DNA of 64,000 nt from Gammaproteobacteria bacterium (GTDB lineage Bacteria; Pseudomonadota; Gammaproteobacteria; Tenderiales; Tenderiaceae). The DNA is taken from positions 287,644 to 351,643 of the forward strand of contig JACQEP010000010.1 of assembly GCA_016200485.1 (NCBI GenBank), written 5' to 3'. The translations under genes and the position numbers were made by a program. Below, piece after piece: positions 5,551 through 43,373 of the stretch (position 1 is its first letter; each line of letters starts with the position of its first letter). Under the pieces are notes generated by a model. That model had not been told where the DNA came from. It did no database searches and worked only from the letters and a program-made list of their open reading frames with translations.

Positions 5551-5693
5551 CAACCTGTTGAAAAAACGCGCTAAGGGGCACATCGCGGCGTTGAAAACGG
5601 ACTCAAAATGCTCATTTACGCCGTATAAACTCCGCTTTTCCGCCCGCTCCCGTCTCGCGCTACATCCCCTGATCACGTTTTTTCAACAGGCTG
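5551..5693. repeat. MITE-like element with 18-bp terminal inverted repeats CAGCYTGTTGAAAAAACG
   Basis: caacctgttgaaaaaacg at 5551-5568 and cgttttttcaacaggctg at 5676-5693. The same TIR type (cagcttgttgaaaaa) bounds the element at 40220-40359. The right TIR overlaps the last codons of ptsI. Confidence 0.5.
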
Positions 5694-21918: not shown

Positions 21919-22686
<768 letters not shown>

Positions 22687-23074
22687 TTACAATAGCCGCC
22701 TTTCAATAACGATAAAAAAAATGGGTAGCAAGACCATAGAGAGATTAAGACCAAAGAGATGATGCCTGATGTCTTTAAGAATTATCCAAAATGGCTGAAA
22801 TCGACACACATTGGACCATTCGAAAATATCCTAGGGAATTGGGAAAAGTAGCTCTGACATCTGAATTTGTCTGAGCATTCTTTTCGCCGACGCAATCGGT
22901 TAACCAGCAATAGGACTTTCTTTTCGTCAATTACCCATATAAAATGAACGGAAAAATAATACCCAAAAGCACCACTTTTCACACACATTGCACGTAATTG
23001 TGCTGGATATCGACGGCCGATCTAGCGGTGGAGCTGATTGTGATGCGTGTCACCATAACAAACTGGTAGCAGAG

Positions 23075-25375
23075 ATGATTAATCGCGTTTCCTCGAAACT
23101 CCTCGTTCGTGAATTATTTGTGTTTATCACCGCAGTTGTACTTAGTGCATGCGGCGGCACAGACAACAGCACTGGAACCACCAGCAATGACGAGAGCAAC
23201 GTCCTGTCTGGTAGCAATGTTAATGTCAACAATGAGAATGTGGCGACAGTTTGGAAAACCGTTGACGCCAGTTGGCAACATAGCGCAGCAATCAAGAGTG
23301 ATGGCACCTTATGGACATGGGGAGATAACGGATTTGGTGAGCTCGGGGATGGTACAAACTCCAACCGAGAAGTACCGGTGCAGATATCAGGGGCGGAATG
23401 GAAAAGTGTTGCCACAGGTAATATTCATACAATTGCGGTTAAAGGCGATGGTACCCTTTGGGCATGGGGAAATAACTTTTATGGACAACTCGGCAATGGT
23501 GCCGTGAATTATGGTGCTGGAGAGAATGCTCCAGTGCATATTGGTAATGACAATGATTGGGTCAGCGTTTCGGCAGGGTACGATTATTCTGTTGCGATAA
23601 AAGAGAACGGTACTCTCTGGGCATGGGGCAATAACATGAGAGGCCAGCTTGGAGATGATGCGACTGTAGATCATTATGTTCCGGTACAGATTGGCTCAAG
23701 CAAGAACTGGATTAGTTTAGCAGCAGGAAATCTTCATGTTGTTGCGATTAAGGCGGATGGAACCCTTTGGGCATGGGGCGACAATACGTTTGGCCAACTC
23801 GGAGACGGTACTACCGAGCAACGAAATCTGCCTATACAGGTCGGTACCGATACCGATTGGGTTACTGTCAGCGCAGGCAATTATCACACATTAGCCATTA
23901 AGCGCGATGGTACGCTCTGGGGCTGGGGAAGTAATGGTGTTGGTCAGCTTGGTGATGGTGCATCCATACAGAGACTCAGCCCCGCGCAAATCGGTCTAGA
24001 CGCTAACTGGGCTGCTGTAACAGCGGGTGCTTTTCATACAATTGCCGTAAAGAGTGATGGCACCCTTTGGGGATGGGGAGATAACTGGCGAAATCAGCTA
24101 GGTGATGGCACAACTACGCAACGGCGCAGCCCAACTCGAATTGGTGTAGACACAGACTGGTCCAGAGCTGCTGCTGGCGGCGCTCACAATATTGCACTCA
24201 AGCGTAACGGTACACTCTGGACCTGGGGCCAAAATGACTATGGCCAACTGGGCAATGGGACGAGCGTGCGAACGCAGGATCGCAGGATACCGACACGTAT
24301 CAATGACGCTATGGTGTGGAAGAAAATCGCAGCTGGTGGAGATCATACCGTCGGCATCAAGGATGACGGTACACTGTGGGCCTGGGGTGATAATACAAAT
24401 GGACAGCTTGGTGATGGCACCACTGTCTATCGAAAAAATCCAATCCAGATTGGCGGCGCGACCGATTGGACTTTTGCGACAGCAGGAACTTCATACACTT
24501 TAGCCCTCAAAAATGACGGTACGCTGTGGGCGTGGGGATATAATGGATTCGGTCAGCTTGGAGACGGCACCACCATCGATCGACATCAGCCAATACGAAT
24601 CGGCACTGCCACTAATTGGACAAGTGTAGTGGCGGGGTATAGCCATTCAGTAGCACTCAAAACTGACGGTACCCTGTGGGCTTGGGGAGACAATGCCTCG
24701 AATCAGCTTGGCATTAATACACTTACGCGTAGCAATGTTCCAATCAAGATTAGCTCAAGTATAGGCTGGCGTAGTGTAGCGGTAGGAGCCTTTCATACGG
24801 TAGCGATTAAGGCGGACGGGACTCTCTGGGCATGGGGAGGAAATTGGTATGGACAGCTCGGTGATGGTACCAATACTAATCAAAACGTCCCCGTGCAAAT
24901 CGGGACTGATCAAGACTGGAGCACTGTTGCGGCCGGAAGCGGGGATACTTTTGCAATCAAAAGTGATACCTCCCTCTGGGGCTGGGGTTATAACCAAAGC
25001 GGTCAACTTGGTGATGGATCAGTAGAAAACCGCAGTTCTCCAGTTCAGGTTCAAGCGGGCGCTGAAACTGGTTGGATTAATATAGCCATTGGTGATGATC
25101 ATTGCGTAGCAATCAAAGCTGACGGAACGCTCTGGGCTTGGGGGTATAATTTATATGGCCAACGTGGAGATGATGTGAATCTAACGGTGGACAGTACCCC
25201 ATCACGAATTAGCGATGATACACCTTGGTCAGGTGTCGCAGCTGGCGCTCAACATTCGGTTGCACTCAAAGCTGATGGAACAGTCTTTACTTGGGGAAAC
25301 AACTATTATGGCCAGCTTGGCATTGGTGTATCTGGTATAGATCAAAACAGTTTAGTGCCAATTGCTATCCCCTGA
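23075..25375 (+). CDS. RCC1-repeat (7-bladed propeller x2) lipoprotein
   Basis: About 14 tandem units of roughly 50 aa with the DGTLWAWG-N-x-GQLGDGT signature. The likely start is Met at 23075 (MINRVSS...FITAVVLSACGG, lipobox LSAC). The listed ORF start at 22988 is an in-frame upstream extension. The region is visibly AT-richer than its flanks. Confidence 0.75.
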   Translation: MINRVSSKLLVRELFVFITAVVLSACGGTDNSTGTTSNDESNVLSGSNVNVNNENVATVWKTVDASWQHSAAIKSDGTLWTWGDNGFGELGDGTNSNREVPVQISGAEWKSVATGNIHTIAVKGDGTLWAWGNNFYGQLGNGAVNYGAGENAPVHIGNDNDWVSVSAGYDYSVAIKENGTLWAWGNNMRGQLGDDATVDHYVPVQIGSSKNWISLAAGNLHVVAIKADGTLWAWGDNTFGQLGDGTTEQRNLPIQVGTDTDWVTVSAGNYHTLAIKRDGTLWGWGSNGVGQLGDGASIQRLSPAQIGLDANWAAVTAGAFHTIAVKSDGTLWGWGDNWRNQLGDGTTTQRRSPTRIGVDTDWSRAAAGGAHNIALKRNGTLWTWGQNDYGQLGNGTSVRTQDRRIPTRINDAMVWKKIAAGGDHTVGIKDDGTLWAWGDNTNGQLGDGTTVYRKNPIQIGGATDWTFATAGTSYTLALKNDGTLWAWGYNGFGQLGDGTTIDRHQPIRIGTATNWTSVVAGYSHSVALKTDGTLWAWGDNASNQLGINTLTRSNVPIKISSSIGWRSVAVGAFHTVAIKADGTLWAWGGNWYGQLGDGTNTNQNVPVQIGTDQDWSTVAAGSGDTFAIKSDTSLWGWGYNQSGQLGDGSVENRSSPVQVQAGAETGWINIAIGDDHCVAIKADGTLWAWGYNLYGQRGDDVNLTVDSTPSRISDDTPWSGVAAGAQHSVALKADGTVFTWGNNYYGQLGIGVSGIDQNSLVPIAIP

Positions 25376-26906: not shown

Positions 26907-26952
26907 GTGAGTGCAAACTCCAAAAAAGAAAATAGGTATAACTGCTGAAAGA

Positions 26953-27055
26953 CTCCCTCTCCCCCAGGGAGAGGGTTGGGGTGAGGGGGTAATTCGTGCA
27001 ACTGCTTAATTACATCCCCTCATCCTAGCCTTCTCCCTAAGGGAGAAGGGACTAG
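26953..27055. repeat. ~105-bp REP/MITE-like element with GGGAGAGGGTTGGGGTGAGGGG core
   Basis: The sequence ctccctctcccccagggagagggttggggtgaggggg...ccttctccctaagggagaagggactag is the reverse complement of the element at 40240-40344. Partial cores occur at 2616-2653 and 14870-14925. Confidence 0.6.
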
Positions 27056-37756: not shown

Positions 37757-38218
37757 TTATATTGCAAATGCTTTAATTCTACGACTTGACCACTGATCAC
37801 ACGACCAACGGCCAACCCCAGCCGTTGCCAATAACAGTAAAACTACACCCCAAGCCTGATGATCGGTCGCGGCAGCAGGATCAAGATCCGGATAACTGAT
37901 TACGGCCATAATATTGAACATAAACAACAGCAATGCAGCAGGCCGCGCCAGCAAGCCAATTACCAGCAATACAGGCATCACCAATTCGATAAACGTTCCA
38001 AGATAGGCCGCATAGAGTGGCGAAAGTAATGGCACTGCATATTCGTTCTCAAAAAGATAAAGTGTGGTATCCCAACTGGTAATTTTCAGATAACCCGATT
38101 TGAAAAACGCCCACGCCACCCACACACGCAATAATAAAAATGCCAGCGGTGCCAGCCAGTCCAGAACTTTGGCGACATATTGCCACGCATGAAAAACAGG
38201 ATTAACAGCTACTTTCAT
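37757..38218 (-). CDS. DoxX family membrane protein (BufD/GigD-like, 4th gene of bufferin-type operon)
   Basis: 153 aa with 4 TM helices of DoxX type. It overlaps the preceding DUF2063 gene by 17 nt, consistent with an operon. Confidence 0.8.
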   Translation of the reverse strand: MKVAVNPVFHAWQYVAKVLDWLAPLAFLLLRVWVAWAFFKSGYLKITSWDTTLYLFENEYAVPLLSPLYAAYLGTFIELVMPVLLVIGLLARPAALLLFMFNIMAVISYPDLDPAAATDHQAWGVVLLLLATAGVGRWSCDQWSSRRIKAFAI

Positions 38219-38984
38219 CAGCTTTCCCCCTCTGTTTTAAACCAATAAAAATCCGGCGCGACAGACAAAAGGCCATGACAGTCGCCACATCCGTCTGATC
38301 CGCATAAGCAGTAAATACCTCACCCACTGGCACACCACCCGCCAAGGCCGTTACTAGCGCATATTCGGACACTCCTAACCGGACGATCTCGACATCAAAA
38401 TCAGTGCGATAGATCAGTAACCGATCACCGCCACTGCCAAGATCGATTTCCTCAAGTTCATCCCGGCGATGTTGTTGCCATATTTCCAGCACCGGGTACT
38501 GTGACTCAAGCCAGCGCAGGGCGGGATGCGGTATCAGTACACCATCATCGTTCATCTCAGCTGCATTCAAAACCAAGCTTGCTTCAGCATTAATGCCCGC
38601 ATGAAAAACTTCGTGATAGGCCCACTCCAGCCGCGCGATATCTGACAAATAGGGAAGTGCTTTGGCCGGAAGAAAATCTTTCAGAAACTCCGCCAGCGTC
38701 ACACCGTAGGCATGCACATTGGCGCTGGTGCGTGGATCATGTTGCCGATAAGCCTCTGCCAATGCCCCAAAGAAGGCCTCCCCCCCTAACCGTTTTATGA
38801 CGGGATACACAGCGGCCAGCGCCTCATGATGCCCGAGCACAAAATTATTGCGGTATACGGTCAACCGCTCGCGGCTGGAGAAGTGATCGCTTATCAGTTC
38901 ATCCGGCACCGCATTCAGCTGCCGCACCACAATCAGTTGACCCATTTCGAGTTGTAAATCACGCAGTGAGTGCATAACACCCAT
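38202..38984 (-). CDS. DUF2063 domain protein (BufC/GigC-like MNIO partner)
   Basis: It follows the DUF692 gene with overlap, as in gig/buf operons. The start is uncertain: the listed ORF extends to 39056, with internal Met candidates at 38984 and 38975. Confidence 0.7.
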   Translation of the reverse strand: MGVMHSLRDLQLEMGQLIVVRQLNAVPDELISDHFSSRERLTVYRNNFVLGHHEALAAVYPVIKRLGGEAFFGALAEAYRQHDPRTSANVHAYGVTLAEFLKDFLPAKALPYLSDIARLEWAYHEVFHAGINAEASLVLNAAEMNDDGVLIPHPALRWLESQYPVLEIWQQHRRDELEEIDLGSGGDRLLIYRTDFDVEIVRLGVSEYALVTALAGGVPVGEVFTAYADQTDVATVMAFCLSRRIFIGLKQRGKADESSC

Positions 38985-39837
38985 CCATAATGTGTTGTGC
39001 GCGCTGTGCTTCGGCCACCAACACCGGCAGCGGCGGCAAGACGGCGTCCCATTCAATTAACACCGGAATGCCCGCAAAACGGGCAACTGCGTGCTCATAC
39101 AAATCCCAGACCTCTTTCGATACTGGCTGGTCGTGGGTATCGATAATAAAGGTCGCCGCGTCGCGCAACTTCCTGGTGTGGCCGGCTAAATGTATCTCAC
39201 CGACAACGCCTGGCACGATATTGTTCAAATACGTTTTCGGATCGAACCGATGATTGATGGCGCTGACATACACATTATTAACGTCCAGCAATAACCCGCA
39301 ACCGCTACGGATCACCAGCTCGGAAAGAAATTCCCATTCACTCATGGTTGAATGTGCGTAGCGCACATAACTTGACAGATTTTCCATCAGAATTTGGCGG
39401 CCAAGAATCTCCTGGGCCTGCGTGACCCGGCCCGCGAGATGCATCAACGCCTCTTCGGTATACGGCAACGGCAGTAAATCATGGAAATGATGGCCTTGTA
39501 CTGATGACCATGACACATGCTCCGAGATCAAGCCGGGCTCAATATACTCGATCAAACGCTTGAGTTGTTTTAAATGAACCTCATCCAGCGGATCGGTCGA
39601 ACCTAGCGACAATCCTACTCCGTGAAGACTGACTGGATAATGTTCACGAATCTGCCCCAGTATCTGCCACGGCCGCCCACGCTCGCCAAAATAATTCTCA
39701 CTATGCACTTCCAGCCAGCCGACATCGGGATGTGCATGCAAAATGTCCTCATAATGCTCGGCCCGAAGACCGATCCCGGCGCACGCCGGGATCGGATGTG
39801 CAACCCGAGACCTGGGGTTTCGATGTTGCGTCACCAT
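38959..39837 (-). CDS. DUF692 multinuclear non-haem iron oxidase (MNIO; MbnB/BufB-like)
   Basis: 292 aa starting GIGLRAEHYEDIL...EVHSENYF, with LMENLSSY and EIHLAGH motifs typical of the DUF692/UPF0276 TIM barrel. Confidence 0.85.
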   Translation of the reverse strand: MVTQHRNPRSRVAHPIPACAGIGLRAEHYEDILHAHPDVGWLEVHSENYFGERGRPWQILGQIREHYPVSLHGVGLSLGSTDPLDEVHLKQLKRLIEYIEPGLISEHVSWSSVQGHHFHDLLPLPYTEEALMHLAGRVTQAQEILGRQILMENLSSYVRYAHSTMSEWEFLSELVIRSGCGLLLDVNNVYVSAINHRFDPKTYLNNIVPGVVGEIHLAGHTRKLRDAATFIIDTHDQPVSKEVWDLYEHAVARFAGIPVLIEWDAVLPPLPVLVAEAQRAQHIMDGCYALTA

Positions 39838-40158: not shown

Positions 40159-40205
40159 GGTGCTCGCAGATAGAGACGCATGAAGTCTTATTTTGTTACA
40201 GGAGG
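40159..40205 (-). promoter_or_regulatory. putative ECF-sigma-type promoter of the buf-like operon (TGTAAC-N15-GCGTCT + conserved GGTGCTCGCAGATA box)
   Basis: The minus-strand reading ...CTGTAACAAAATAAGACTTCATGCGTCTCTATCTGCGAGCACC is almost identical to the motif at 41695-41741 upstream of the lactonase gene. Confidence 0.45.
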
Positions 40206-40219
40206 AAATGAAAAATTAG

Positions 40220-40359
40220 CAGCTTGTTGAAAAAGGCTCTTAGTCCCTTCTCCCTCCGGGAGAAGGCTAGGATGAGGGGATAAAATCAAGTAGTGATGAG
40301 GCATTTAACCCCTCACCCCAACCCTCTCCCTGGAGGAGAGGGAGTTTTTCAACAAGCTG
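40220..40359. repeat. 140-bp MITE (15-bp TIR CAGCTTGTTGAAAAA) carrying the GGGAGAAGG...CCTCACCCCAACCCTCTCCC core
   Basis: TIRs at 40220-40234 and 40345-40359. The internal ~105 bp is the reverse complement of the 26953-27055 element. Confidence 0.65.
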
Positions 40360-40461
40360 TTACTGATCTTTTTTTCGAATCATGGAGATAAAAAACAAAA
40401 GGACGGCATCGCTGCCGTCCTCCTTGCTTTCGCAACTTAATGAGGATCGTGTTTCAATCGA

Positions 40462-41550
40462 TTAGCGCACCGCCATACCTTGCGCAAACAACGGCAAACC
40501 GCCATCGACATTGCCCATACCGGTCAAACTGCCGTCGTGCTCGATCTTGAACATGTCTACACCACCGTTCGCCGGATCTACGGCGTAAACAAAACGGCCG
40601 TCCTTGGACACATCAATATCAAGCGGCCGATCACCGGCCCCGGCCAAACCATTCAGCAATGTCACGGCACCCGTCTGCGCATCAACGTGAAAGGCCGATA
40701 AGGAGTGCGTACCGGGATTGGTGGTAATGACATCGCCCCGCTGGTTCACAACGATCCAGCATGTTGCGATCTGGCCGTTAGCTGCTGATGCGGTAATGGT
40801 TTGCAAGCTGCCGTCGCGCAGCAGATCATAAGACGACACTGCATTACTGCCTGCCTCCACCGCCAGCAGATGCCCTACCCTGTCAAAAGCAACACCAAAG
40901 GGGACGTTGCCGGCGGATGCCGAGACCACAGGCGTGACATCCGGCAAGCCATGCTCACGCGTGCGATATACCAACAATCTGTTATTGGCTTTATCGGTGA
41001 CCACCAGCGACTTTCTCTGCGCATCGAATGCAACCTGACCAAAGGAGCCCGAGCCCAACGCACGCGTGGAATCCGGCAGTGGCACCAACTGCCCATGATC
41101 GCTCAACCGGAAACCTGTAATATTCGCGGGGACACCGTTGTTGAGCACATAAACGATATGTTCCGAAACGGTCACACTCACCGGAAAACTGCCGCCGGAA
41201 CCGGTTCTGTCACTCAACTCGATACCATCATTCTTCACGCGGAACACAGAAATATCGTTGCTTCCCGCGTTAACGGCCAGCAACCATTTACCCTCGTCAG
41301 CGAGCACCAGCGATCCTTGAGACGCCAACGGATCCAAGCCGCCTCCGGAACCTTTGCCACCCGTAGAGACCGCATCTGTTTTAATGAGAATTCCTTGCGC
41401 ATCACGGCTAAAAACAACGATCCGGTTATCTTCAGGCGCGTTAGTCATGGTATATGCCGCGCCTCCTGAATGAGCCTGCGCGCCGAACGATCCTAACAGG
41501 AATATCGCCGCTGTCGCGCTCCCTAGAAAATATCTTTTAATGTCCATGAT
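40462..41550 (-). CDS. secreted 7-bladed beta-propeller lactonase-family protein (YVTN/3-carboxymuconate-cyclase-like)
   Basis: A signal peptide (MDIKRYFLGSATAAIFLLGSFGAQA) is followed by repeated propeller-like blades (SVF..., VYAVDPANGG...). The start is set at the internal Met at 41550. Confidence 0.65.
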   Translation of the reverse strand: MMDIKRYFLGSATAAIFLLGSFGAQAHSGGAAYTMTNAPEDNRIVVFSRDAQGILIKTDAVSTGGKGSGGGLDPLASQGSLVLADEGKWLLAVNAGSNDISVFRVKNDGIELSDRTGSGGSFPVSVTVSEHIVYVLNNGVPANITGFRLSDHGQLVPLPDSTRALGSGSFGQVAFDAQRKSLVVTDKANNRLLVYRTREHGLPDVTPVVSASAGNVPFGVAFDRVGHLLAVEAGSNAVSSYDLLRDGSLQTITASAANGQIATCWIVVNQRGDVITTNPGTHSLSAFHVDAQTGAVTLLNGLAGAGDRPLDIDVSKDGRFVYAVDPANGGVDMFKIEHDGSLTGMGNVDGGLPLFAQGMAVR

Positions 41551-41694
41551 TTTTTTCCTCTTGGTTGTGAATGAAGAAAGATCAAATCGGCGGCCCAATG
41601 CCGCCTTCGCGGTACTGCTGTCCGCGTGCAGCCGCCTCGTAACGCCAAATAGCGTCAAAGTTGCAATGATGAAATAGATTTACCCGCGCCGGCC

Positions 41695-41741
41695 GGTGCT
41701 CGCAGATAAAGACGCGGGACTCCCCGCTTTGTTACAGATGG
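41695..41741 (-). promoter_or_regulatory. putative ECF-sigma-type promoter of the lactonase gene (second copy of shared motif)
   Basis: The minus-strand reading ...CTGTAACAAAGCGGGGAGTCCCGCGTCTTTATCTGCGAGCACC lies between the anti-sigma gene's 3' end and the lactonase start. Confidence 0.45.
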
Positions 41742-41750
41742 GAATGAAAA

Positions 41751-42014
41751 TTACTGATCTTTTTTCGAAGTGGACTTCGAGGAGGAGGATTGGCGCTGGC
41801 GCAGCAGCAAGGCCACCTGATTATCAATGGCGCCGCTGTCTGGAGATTTCTTCAAGCCCGCCAGCGTACTGACAGTGGTTCGCATCTGACGAATGAAGTT
41901 GCGGCAATGAACGCAGATAAACAGGTGCCAGCGGAATTGAATCCTCCCCCATAAGGAGAGGCGTTTTTCCAGGTAGTCACTGGCGTGGTCATGAATATCC
42001 CGGCACTTAAACAT
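41751..42014 (-). CDS. anti-sigma factor, zf-HC2 (putative zinc-finger) type
   Basis: H-x3-C-x2-C motif (WHLFICVHCRNF) near the N-terminus. Its start codon overlaps the sigma-factor stop (TAATG), indicating translational coupling. Confidence 0.65.
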   Translation of the reverse strand: MFKCRDIHDHASDYLEKRLSLWGRIQFRWHLFICVHCRNFIRQMRTTVSTLAGLKKSPDSGAIDNQVALLLRQRQSSSSKSTSKKDQ

Positions 42015-42622
42015 TAGCCAGCCTCGCCGCGCTGAAATTGATCGATGGCCTGCCACAGTCGCAAGCGGGCGCGATGCAACAACACTCGACTATTAGACTC
42101 GGAAAGCTCCAGAATATTACAAATTTCATCCATCTCCAGCCCCTCAACATCGCGCAGCGTCAACACCGTCCGTTGCACTTCCGGCAACGCAACAAGCGTA
42201 CAATCGATCACTGCCCGTAATTGTTCACTGGCCAACATCAGTTCCGGGGTATCTTGATGCCAGTGGCCGGGCGGTTCCACCCAGTGACCATCCGGCTGAA
42301 ACATCTGGCCAGCGGCTGCGGCGACCAACTCAATATCTGCGGCATCCCCGACAGCGACCGAACGCCGCTCGCGGCGCAGACGCGTTTTGGCCAGATTGCC
42401 GACAATTTGCAGAATCCAGGTCTTAAGACTGGCACGCCGTTCAAACTGAGGCAGGGCCTGGATCACGGCCAGCCAGGCATCCTGCACGATTTCTTCGGCA
42501 AACTCGCTACCGATAATGGCGCGCGCCACATGCTGCATCAGTCCATGATACTCGCCAACGACGTGCCGGAATGCCTCCTCGTCGCCCGCCAGTAATCTGG
42601 TAATTAATTCGCCGTCATCCAT
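42014..42622 (-). CDS. ECF (group IV) sigma-70 family RNA polymerase sigma factor
   Basis: 202 aa with sigma-2 (…FRHVVGEYHGLMQHVAR…) and sigma-4 (LPEVQRTVLTLRDVEGLEMDEICNILELSESNSRVLLHRAR) regions. Confidence 0.85.
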   Translation of the reverse strand: MDDGELITRLLAGDEEAFRHVVGEYHGLMQHVARAIIGSEFAEEIVQDAWLAVIQALPQFERRASLKTWILQIVGNLAKTRLRRERRSVAVGDAADIELVAAAAGQMFQPDGHWVEPPGHWHQDTPELMLASEQLRAVIDCTLVALPEVQRTVLTLRDVEGLEMDEICNILELSESNSRVLLHRARLRLWQAIDQFQRGEAG

Positions 42623-42680
42623 GACCGGTTAGCTTAGGTTGTTTAGGCAGCGCAATACAAGCTGGCTCGAGATGCAATCA

Positions 42681-43373
42681 TCATGAAATCTTTTTAAACA
42701 GCAAATCCCAGATGCCATGCCCCAGCCGCTGGCCTCGGCTTTCAAATTTGGTGACAGGTCGGTAATCCGGTCGCTCGGCACATTGACCGGCACCAGCGAG
42801 ATTTTCGAAACCTTCAGCCGCATTTAATACATCCATCATCCACTCAGCATAATCCTGCCAGTCCGTCGCCAGATGCAACACGCCGTTGACTTTGAGCTTA
42901 CGCCGCAATAACTGAATAAAATCGGGCTGAATCAGCCGCCGTTTGTGATGCTTTTTTTTATGCCAGGGATCAGGAAAGAAAATCAGCACTCGATCGAACG
43001 ATTGATCCGGAATCCGTGTTTGCAGAATATCGACGGCGTCGGCACAAAGCACGCGCACATTGGTACTGCCTTGCTCACCCAGCCTGGACAGCAAACGGCC
43101 AACACCTGGCCGATGCACTTCAATACCGAGAAAATCCTGCTCGGGATGCGTCGCCGCCAATGGTGCCAGCGCATCACCCATACCAAAACCAATCTCCAAC
43201 GTGAGCGGTGCGGAGCGGCCATATATTTCAATAAAATTTAATGGCGTCGCACCTGGTTCCAGGCCAACGCGTGGCCACATTTCATCCAGGGCACGCTGTT
43301 GTGCTGCCGTGGTGCGGCCAATGCGACGGACAAAACTGCGGACGGTGCGGAGGGGACGATTGCTATTGGGCAT
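42681..43373 (-). CDS. trmB: tRNA (guanine-N7)-methyltransferase
   Basis: 230 aa with a SAM-binding motif (LEIGFGMG) and a conserved FPDPWHKKKHHKRR segment. Confidence 0.9.
   Translation of the reverse strand: MPNSNRPLRTVRSFVRRIGRTTAAQQRALDEMWPRVGLEPGATPLNFIEIYGRSAPLTLEIGFGMGDALAPLAATHPEQDFLGIEVHRPGVGRLLSRLGEQGSTNVRVLCADAVDILQTRIPDQSFDRVLIFFPDPWHKKKHHKRRLIQPDFIQLLRRKLKVNGVLHLATDWQDYAEWMMDVLNAAEGFENLAGAGQCAERPDYRPVTKFESRGQRLGHGIWDLLFKKIS

Follow-up and report, generated by a model that had tools for sequence, protein, structure and literature searches.

A duplicated ECF-type promoter motif at a bufferin locus: a probable small regulon of the adjacent sigma factor that includes a beta-propeller gene

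A lactonase-family beta-propeller gene and a bufferin operon (bufA-bufB-bufC-doxX) lie one behind the other on the minus strand of a 64,000-nucleotide (nt) stretch of gammaproteobacterial DNA (GenBank assembly GCA_016200485.1, contig JACQEP010000010.1, positions 287,644 to 351,643; the whole stretch is called the window below), and both are preceded by nearly the same short sequence. This raises the question whether the repeat represents two working promoters, which sigma factor reads them, and how a propeller gene came to share such an element with a bufferin operon. A preliminary description had proposed a duplicated promoter of the extracytoplasmic function (ECF) type and a small regulon driven by the ECF sigma factor encoded next to it. 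Our analysis points to the same answer. Both repeats are probably functional promoters for the ECF sigma factor encoded immediately upstream, which would be controlled by a zinc-binding anti-sigma (ZAS) factor and would serve the propeller gene as well as the bufferin operon; we estimate the probability of this reading at about 0.85.

Read on the minus strand, the motif has the form CTGTAACAAA-N12-GCGTCT-YTATCTGCGAGCACC and is present in two copies, 41737..41695 before the propeller gene (copy A) and 40201..40159 before bufA (copy B). The two copies previously placed at 40159-40205 and 41695-41741 were recovered by a repeat search of the window as a 56-nt direct repeat (40159-40214 and 41695-41750) with 77% identity. 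The 21-mer GGTGCTCGCAGATARAGACGC and the pattern TGTAACAAA-N12-GCGTCT occur twice each in the 64 kb, for which shuffled sequences give an expectation of 0.00. The gap of 13 nt before GCGTCT given in the preliminary description needs correction, as 12 nt separate this hexamer from TGTAACAAA, while TGTAAC-N16-CGTCT, the longer of the two spacings it gave for this pair, is accurate. Likewise, the term near-identical holds for the -35 block (10/10 positions) and for the -10 element with the box downstream of it (20/21; GCGTCT itself 6/6), but not for the spacer, where just 3/12 positions agree. Both copies read GTAAC-N16-CGTCT and thus show the AAC of the -35 element, the CGT of the -10 element and the fixed distance of about 16-17 nt by which ECF promoters are recognised. 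Transcription start sites were predicted from a conserved A located 6 nt after the 8-mer -10 element, which is where the gonococcal msrAB transcript was mapped to begin (PMC2893595). The resulting 5' leaders would be ~153 nt long for the propeller gene and ~55 nt for bufA, and TTCATCATTRCA, common to both copies, lies ~30 nt downstream of the predicted start.

The identification of the motif as a promoter relies mainly on its recurrence in relatives. Orthologous loci, labelled L001-L096, were gathered by a sigma protein search followed by contig look-up. Sigma orthologues with 50-94% identity are always followed directly by a zf-HC2 anti-sigma gene. The genes that come next are the propeller gene in L082 (sigma 94% identical; the contig ends soon after), propeller, bufABCD and doxX in L083 (84%) and in L004 (79%, on the same contig as L012), bufABCD and doxX in L005 (69%), L006 (64%) and L085/L086 (62%), msrP and msrQ in L001/L002 (83%), and hvfA, hvfB, a DUF2063 gene and doxX in L096, a locus of the isolate-derived P. 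aeruginosa sequence CP075839.1 (50%). At every one of these loci, a T-tract and (C/T)TG(T/C)AAC, followed exactly 16 nt on by CGTCT or one of the variants CATCT, TATCT, CGACT and CGTCC, are located between the anti-sigma gene and the next gene, and where the propeller gene is present the motif recurs before bufA. In total, 12 instances from eight genomes (the window and seven others) share the invariant 12-nt gap; 11 of them were aligned, and the twelfth, from P. aeruginosa, was read directly. In the alignment, the information content per position was 1.56 bits for the -35 block, 1.41 for the -10 block, 0.68 for the spacer and ~0.5 for the flanks. A conserved A at the predicted start, in a 'CG-A' context, was seen in most instances including that of P. 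aeruginosa. The strict pattern GTAAC-N16-CGTCT was found 13 times on both strands of the 0.71 Mb of DNA fetched, where ~1.4 matches are expected, and 10 of the 13 lie at the predicted places. While the gene behind the motif varies (bufA in L004, L005, L006, L083 and L085, propeller in L004, L082 and L083, msrP in L001, hvfA in L096), its constant neighbour is the sigma/anti-sigma pair. The invariant spacing, the restriction of conservation to the two blocks and the site specificity are together the signature of a sigma-factor promoter rather than of a coding, RNA or mobile repeat. The ECF-type assignment made previously is thereby strengthened, all the more as the element fits the promoters defined by experiment in related systems (PMC2893595, PMC3511200).

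The sigma orthologue of L001/L002 (7870-8110) is found in a different neighbourhood, after metF, with the variant motif CTGCAACAAAT-N12-CATCT in front of msrP-msrQ; the two L001 proteins exceed the cut-offs of the NCBIfam equivalog models for MsrP and MsrQ. The sigma family is thereby linked with the repair of methionine sulfoxide in the periplasm, as in Caulobacter (yedY) and in Neisseria and Haemophilus (msrAB). An extra strict motif at L048, divergent from a distant sigma gene, was dropped as it has no interpretable downstream gene. A scan of metagenomes with the sigma protein returned relatives of at most 56% identity, and neither neighbouring buf genes nor a consistent motif were found with them.

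Table 1. Genes, putative promoter parts and repeats at the sigma-propeller-bufferin locus of the window.
Feature	Positions	Strand	Evidence or remark
trmB	43373..42681	minus	
ECF sigma factor gene, 202 amino acids (aa)	42622..42014	minus	Pfam Sigma70_r2 3.5e-15, Sigma70_r4_2 8.9e-14; NCBIfam sigma70-ECF 78.9 bits (cut-off 42.9)
Anti-sigma factor gene, 87 aa, soluble ZAS type	42014..41751	minus	Pfam zf-HC2 2.8e-07; NCBIfam anti-sigma factor family 60.5 bits (cut-off 50)
Putative promoter copy A (propeller gene)	41770..41695	minus	upstream end overlaps final anti-sigma codons
Copy A, T-tract	41750..41747	minus	
Copy A, -35 CTGTAACAAA	41737..41728	minus	
Copy A, spacer	41727..41716	minus	
Copy A, -10 GCGTCT	41715..41710	minus	
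Copy A, predicted +1 (A)	41700	minus	
Lactonase-family beta-propeller gene, 361 aa, periplasmic	41547..40462	minus	Pfam Lactonase PF10282 1.2e-17; signal peptide ...AQA/HS
Strong intrinsic terminator after propeller gene	40424..40397	minus	12-bp stem and T-run
Repeated 20-nt anti-sigma tail TTCGAAAAAAAGATCAGTAA, upstream flank of copy B	40379..40360	minus	15 nt exact match
MITE-like insert with probable TAA target duplication	40216-40359		splits copy B; inverted-repeat detection
Putative promoter copy B (bufA operon)	40215..40159	minus	
Copy B, T-tract	40215..40211	minus	
Copy B, -35 CTGTAACAAA	40201..40192	minus	
Copy B, spacer	40191..40180	minus	
Copy B, -10 GCGTCT	40179..40174	minus	
Copy B, predicted +1 (A)	40164	minus	
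bufA, DUF2282 bufferin precursor, 88 aa	40109..39843	minus	Pfam DUF2282 9.6e-23; signal peptide
bufB, MNIO-family bufferin maturase	39837..38959	minus	NCBIfam MNIO_BufB 393.8 bits (cut-off 310); Pfam MbnB_TglH_ChrH 1.3e-109
bufC, DUF2063 partner protein	38984..38202	minus	start 38984 or 38975, uncertain; Pfam DUF2063 2.9e-17
doxX, DoxX-family membrane protein, last gene of operon	38218..37757	minus	Pfam DoxX 6.2e-16

The duplicated stretch is considerably longer than the ~45 bp first described. It measures ~110 bp, and its upstream part takes in the last 20 nt of the anti-sigma gene; this tail, TTCGAAAAAAGATCAGTAA, read as TTCGAAAAAA(A)GATCAGTAA, is located at 41769..41751 and again at 40379..40360, there with one extra A (A6 versus A7). 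Such cargo without function, together with a third, decayed -35 element lacking a -10 element directly after the anti-sigma gene of L004, would be expected if the second copy were a neutral by-product of segmental duplication without promoter activity, and expression of the propeller gene would then depend entirely on transcripts running through from the sigma/anti-sigma operon. However, identity in the spacer has fallen to 3/12, whereas it is still 10/10 in the -35 block and 6/6 in the -10 hexamer, and a promoter copy before the propeller gene has been kept in L082, L083 and L004, whose sigma proteins are 79-94% identical. We therefore regard this explanation as very unlikely. As for bufA, the terminator behind the propeller gene parts the two transcription units, so that the operon needs a promoter copy of its own. 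Right after the anti-sigma stop codon, the spacer of copy A forms a GC hairpin, GCGGGGAGTCCCGC (41727..41714), which reaches into the -10 block; it was flagged as terminator-like on both strands, and L082 (1860-1873) retains the stem with another loop base. Transcription continuing out of the sigma operon towards the propeller gene may be damped by this hairpin.

Copy B is interrupted between its upstream flank and its promoter by an insert of ~141 bp (40219-40359) resembling a miniature inverted-repeat transposable element (MITE), located behind the terminator of the propeller gene and ahead of the bufA promoter. It is bounded by perfect terminal inverted repeats of 15 nt, CAGCTTGTTGAAAAA (family repeats CAGCYTGTTGAAAAA), and shows a probable TAA target duplication at 40216-40218 and a hairpin-forming core (CCCTCTCC..GGGAGAGGGTTGGGGTGAGGGG). 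The core is found exactly at 26965-26988 (family copy ~26930-27050), the terminal repeats flank a different core at 5551-5693, and a related element occupies the same place in L082 (3260-3302), whose contig ends within it. No Rfam family scored above threshold on the insert or on the conserved 5' untranslated region, and the sub-threshold hits, of hairpin type, fell on the insert. The presence of such an element right beside copy B, with related elements elsewhere in the window, might suggest that the promoter repeat is itself a piece broken from a repeat family that is dispersed or mobile. Yet the family members at 5551-5693 and ~26.9 kb carry no promoter sequence, which shows that the promoter is not part of the insert, and the promoter sequence, located outside the element, has two copies only in the window. 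In addition, the degenerate -10 element plus box was scanned against one genome for each of 185,579 species, a set that does not include the source genome. This gave 24 matches, of which the one in L012, at the orthologous locus, is the only related one; the other 23 lack TGTAAC, and most lie in one coding context (...FVSTCEHH...). Dispersal over many loci, which the preliminary description had named as fatal to its proposal, was thus not observed among the reference genomes, and an origin of the motif from a repeat family is scarcely credible. The insert appears to be a small mobile repeat in its own right, which entered the segment after the latter had been duplicated.

The sigma and anti-sigma genes are closely linked, the anti-sigma ATG overlapping the sigma stop codon (TAATG). 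The anti-sigma protein has a complete ZAS motif, C4-x25-H30-x3-C34-x2-C37, in agreement with the general form C/H-x23-26-H-x3-C-x2-C. Its maximal 19-residue Kyte-Doolittle hydropathy of 0.7 indicates that it has no membrane segment, and its homologues are 79-87 aa long. The operon downstream has the composition of a bufferin (Buf1) cluster, namely a DUF2282 precursor with signal peptide and four cysteines (positions 37, 48, 55 and 76), an MNIO enzyme, a DUF2063 partner and a DoxX protein. Homologues of BufC comprise 251-266 aa, their genes overlapping the end of bufB, and doxX takes the same position in L004, L005, L006, L083, L085 and L096. On this basis, a simple switch can be proposed. The co-translated, soluble 87-aa ZAS protein would keep the sigma factor inactive until an oxidant or a thiophilic metal, e.g. 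copper, attacks the zinc site formed by its cysteine and histidine residues, as judged from characterised ZAS systems. The sigma factor thus freed would allow RNA polymerase to initiate at ~41700, giving an mRNA for the periplasmic lactonase-family propeller, and at ~40164, giving a bufA-bufB-bufC-doxX mRNA and eventually a periplasmic copper-binding modified peptide.

Is the adjacent sigma factor indeed the one that reads these promoters? No matching motif was found upstream of the sigma gene (upstream of 42622), and the argument from autoregulation, which is common although not universal among ECF sigma factors, can therefore not be used to assign this sigma factor to the promoters. Moreover, AAC/CGT-type motifs are common to many ECF groups. 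Cross-talk between ECF groups is discussed in PMC13492112. The motif could hence be a genuine ECF-type promoter that is read by another ECF sigma factor encoded elsewhere in the genome, its adjacency to the present one being incidental. This is contradicted by the finding that the motif lies directly after this sigma/anti-sigma pair in eight genomes, whatever gene comes next, and by the known systems: Neisseria sigmaE and Caulobacter sigmaF, encoded next to or within the homologous peptide clusters, drive them, and in Haemophilus influenzae the orthologous sigma factor, RpoE2, does so. We consider a different sigma factor decidedly unlikely. Apart from the missing autoregulatory motif, four further points weigh against our assignment to the adjacent sigma factor. 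The support is in silico throughout, with start sites being predicted; the motif search in the source genome covered the 64-kb window, and further copies or ECF sigma factors of similar specificity may exist elsewhere; the 11 aligned instances are phylogenetically non-independent; and some copies on the propeller side have an imperfect -10 element (TATCT in L004, CGACT in L083) and are possibly weak. On balance, the comparative data support the small regulon, consisting of the propeller gene and the bufferin operon under the adjacent ECF sigma factor, that had been proposed for this locus.

A two-mismatch motif inside the sigma gene (42095-42121) was considered as an autoregulatory promoter and rejected, as it does not exceed chance level. 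The sigma gene has no Shine-Dalgarno sequence (window 42623-42700). In L083 (240-300) and L004 (6940-7005), a conserved TTGCCT-N18-TAAGCT ends ~8 nt before the sigma ATG, the window and L082 being ~13 nt longer in this region. This sequence suggests that the sigma mRNA may be a leaderless or near-leaderless transcript of the housekeeping sigma70 type. Furthermore, the window contains a third strict GTAAC-N16-CGTCT match (TTTTTGTAACCCCGTTAAACCACACTCGTCT) in an intergenic region at 22638-22663 on the plus strand. It lies ~350-400 nt upstream of an open reading frame (22988-25375) for a 795-aa RCC1-repeat propeller protein, and may mark an additional member of the regulon or have arisen by chance.

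Similarity of the two copies is not restricted to the promoter elements proper. The box CTGCGAGCACC around the predicted +1 is common to both window copies and to the bufA copy of L004, and partially present in L083; it matches at 20/21 positions between the copies although their spacers have diverged. When bufA is transcribed in the window, in L083 or in L004, the box would form the 5' arm of a hairpin starting at ~+2, with compensating changes in L083 (GAACACC/GGUGUUC); the predicted copy B transcript begins with the short hairpin GCACC-ACG-GGUGU. These observations suggest that, with the promoter assignment being right, the box and TTCATCATTRCA might constitute a second regulatory layer, either the operator of a repressor or a 5' hairpin for mRNA stability. 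However, the box is not found in L005, L006, L085 and L096, the folding z-scores of the window copies are weak or positive, copy A folds differently, and no match came from Rfam. The likeness may just as well be residual, or a result of gene conversion between recently related copies. A second layer of control thus appears unlikely to us.

How did the propeller gene become part of this arrangement? Its product matches PF10282 with 64.6 bits (cut-off 21.7), and its AlphaFold model (pLDDT 89.9, pTM 0.87) has a seven-bladed fold. The best solved structural neighbours are YbhE/Pgl-type lactonases and the periplasmic gluconolactonase PpgL, with TM values of 0.72-0.76 at only 13-17% identity, and the NCBIfam 6-phosphogluconolactonase models remain far under their cut-offs. 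A 100%-identical protein is annotated in a gammaproteobacterial metagenome-assembled genome at NCBI, and the family has thousands of members. The Deinococcus SOD-propeller lactonase was rejected for comparison because it has a six-bladed SGL domain and belongs to a different family.

The propeller gene is missing from the sigma-buf loci with 62-69% identical sigma proteins (L005, L006, L085), and homologues 55-73% identical to the propeller protein occur without buf genes. The latter are encoded beside a cupredoxin-like protein in L088-90, beside a cytochrome b/molybdoenzyme pair in L091, alone in L092, and near msrA in L093-95, where the gene for an OmpR-type regulator immediately precedes the propeller gene. 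No ECF motif was found upstream of the homologues in L088-L095. Instead, L088, L091 and L092 share GTTATAGAAAWGTGATCYTTTYGTGAT, consisting of three GTkAT repeats with 11-bp spacing, ~170-210 nt upstream of the propeller homologue (~4815-4845 in L088 and L091, ~4785-4815 in L092). This box, which is not present in the window, looks like a site for a response regulator of the OmpR/PhoB family. The ribosome-binding region CAAGAGGAGAA...ATG is kept in all of these and also in the window. Absence of the propeller gene from the more distant sigma-buf loci and presence of a different box elsewhere indicate that it was recruited into the regulon in the clade of the window, L082, L083 and L004, and that it apparently retained its own translation signals and acquired a bufferin promoter copy.

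The ancestral order was presumably sigma, anti-sigma, promoter and bufABCD. In the lineage of the window the propeller gene would have been put between the anti-sigma gene and bufA, with the ~110-bp promoter-bearing segment on both sides of it, and would thus have been recruited; the terminator after the propeller gene and the later MITE-like insertion would keep the two units apart. A more far-reaching scenario can be put forward tentatively, and we consider it possible rather than probable. The propeller gene would have been rewired from another, response-regulator-like control to the ECF sigma/ZAS switch by the duplicate bufferin promoter, and the near-identity of the copies outside the spacer (20-nt anti-sigma tail, +1 box with its 5' hairpin) would be actively maintained, either through gene conversion or through a second control element that both have around +1. 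The locus would then document a datable, stepwise regulon growth, with the propeller as a new envelope-stress effector beside bufferins and MsrPQ. The neighbours of the homologues, with links to copper and to methionine-sulfoxide repair, fit a common envelope-stress theme. The suggestion of the preliminary description that the propeller enzyme acts with the modified peptide, in contrast, is not supported, as nothing indicates an action on the bufferin and, as shown above, both the sigma-buf loci and the propeller homologues occur without the other partner, the homologues with a different upstream element.

Among the copper-binding natural products of bacteria, bufferins and related MNIO-modified peptides form a class that was recognised recently and is very widespread. 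Tests of their induction come from Caulobacter and, as regards homologous clusters, from Neisseria and Haemophilus, while in Cupriavidus a link to the adjacent sigma factor could not be demonstrated. The sequences compared here suggest a promoter definition for the ZAS branch, consisting of a T-tract, TGTAACA, 12 nt, CGTCT and a start ~14 nt on, that extends from uncultured Gammaproteobacteria to P. aeruginosa. It could be used to predict regulon members, e.g. MsrPQ, the HvfA clusters and the propeller protein. The locus also makes a periplasmic propeller family that is still uncharacterised a candidate for a co-regulated stress protein. Current understanding is not overturned by this locus.

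Among the known systems, sigmaE of Neisseria meningitidis and N. gonorrhoeae (NMB2144) with its ZAS anti-sigma factor MseR (NMB2145) controls an operon of three hypothetical-protein genes and doxX, which are buf homologues, as well as msrAB (PMC2893595, PMC3240639). H. influenzae RpoE2/HrsE is a system of the same kind (PMC7907618). The window resembles both in having an ECF sigma factor with a small, soluble, co-transcribed ZAS anti-sigma factor, and in the sigma orthologue of L001, which apparently drives msrPQ. The Neisseria sigmaE promoter comprises a -35 element GTMAGBWTT, a spacer of 12-13 nt, a -10 element CGTCTAAH, an A/T-rich upstream element and a start 6 nt after the -10 element (PMC2893595). 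The promoter of the window reads GTAACAAAN-N12-CGTCTYTA-N6-A and agrees in the CGTCT of the -10 element, the spacer length, the A/T-rich upstream element and the position of the (predicted) start; it differs in the -35 element, which is GTAAC(A) here and GTAAG(G) there. Moreover, in Neisseria the sigma gene is autoregulated and lies inside the regulated operon, whereas here the sigma/anti-sigma genes lie upstream and outside the regulated units, with no sigma-type motif before them. The methionine sulfoxide reductase is MsrAB there and MsrPQ among the relatives here, and a propeller gene is absent from the described regulons.

In Caulobacter, sigmaF with the membrane anti-sigma factor NrsF responds to copper and other metals and drives buf1, buf2 and a yedY homologue from GTAACC-N16-CGAA (PMC3511200, PMC11626156). 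This ECF16 system shares with the window the adjacent ECF sigma gene before DUF2282-MNIO-DUF2063-DoxX genes, the -35 element GTAAC and, in its regulon, a YedY/MsrP-type molybdoenzyme. Autoregulation was reported to be weak or absent for Caulobacter sigF and H. influenzae rpoE2; the former is only weakly autoregulated, comparable to the sigma gene of the window with no motif before it. In contrast, the Caulobacter anti-sigma factor is a six-helix membrane protein (NrsF, DUF1109) and the -10 element there is CGAA, as compared with a soluble ZAS protein and CGTCT here. The window thus lacks the NrsF/DUF1109 membrane anti-sigma factor that defines ECF16 (sigmaF/NrsF, RpoQ/RsqA), its zf-HC2 protein being soluble, and is no member of that group. 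The ECF16 consensus given in a 2026 Cupriavidus transcriptome paper (-35 AATTCG, -10 GGTTAC; PMC13492112 Table 4) is the reverse complement of the Caulobacter sigmaF element GTAACC-N16-CGAA(TT) (PMC3511200). The lack of any ECF16 motif hit before gig or rpoQ in that paper might be due to this reversal.

The P. aeruginosa locus L096 (5986-9747) encodes a sigma factor beside oprO/oprP to which the window sigma is 50% identical over 195 aa. It shares the zf-HC2 anti-sigma gene and an MNIO metallophore cluster with DoxX as its last member, and its promoter has the same architecture, with a T-tract, TGTAAC-N16-CGTCC and, where the start is predicted, CG-A; unlike the window, it has a precursor of the HvfA type (KCGExKCG repeats) rather than DUF2282, and no propeller gene. 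Judging from the PAO1 gene order, this sigma factor is probably PA3285. The literature places PA3285 in ECF293, a merger including the former ECF13, and reviews describe it as PvdS-regulated and without known anti-sigma factor (PMC8999054, PMC6851896). In L096, a 79-aa zf-HC2 gene is annotated between the ECF sigma gene and the HvfA/HvfB/DUF2063/DoxX cluster. If L096 is PA3285, the listing in PMC8999054 may have missed this small gene.

The Neisseria/Haemophilus ZAS branch is known in the literature as ECF13, now merged into ECF293. By comparison, the locus studied here would work like the sigmaF/bufferin system and, by its type of anti-sigma factor, belong to this ZAS branch. Control of MNIO-peptide metallophore clusters by ECF sigma factors has already been described for Neisseria, Haemophilus and Caulobacter. 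The new and modestly interesting aspect is the recruitment of a propeller gene by promoter duplication, which resembles other cases of regulon growth by promoter duplication or capture in that a gene carrying a different box elsewhere (GTTATAGAAAWGTGATCYTTTYGTGAT) stands here behind a copy of its neighbour's promoter.

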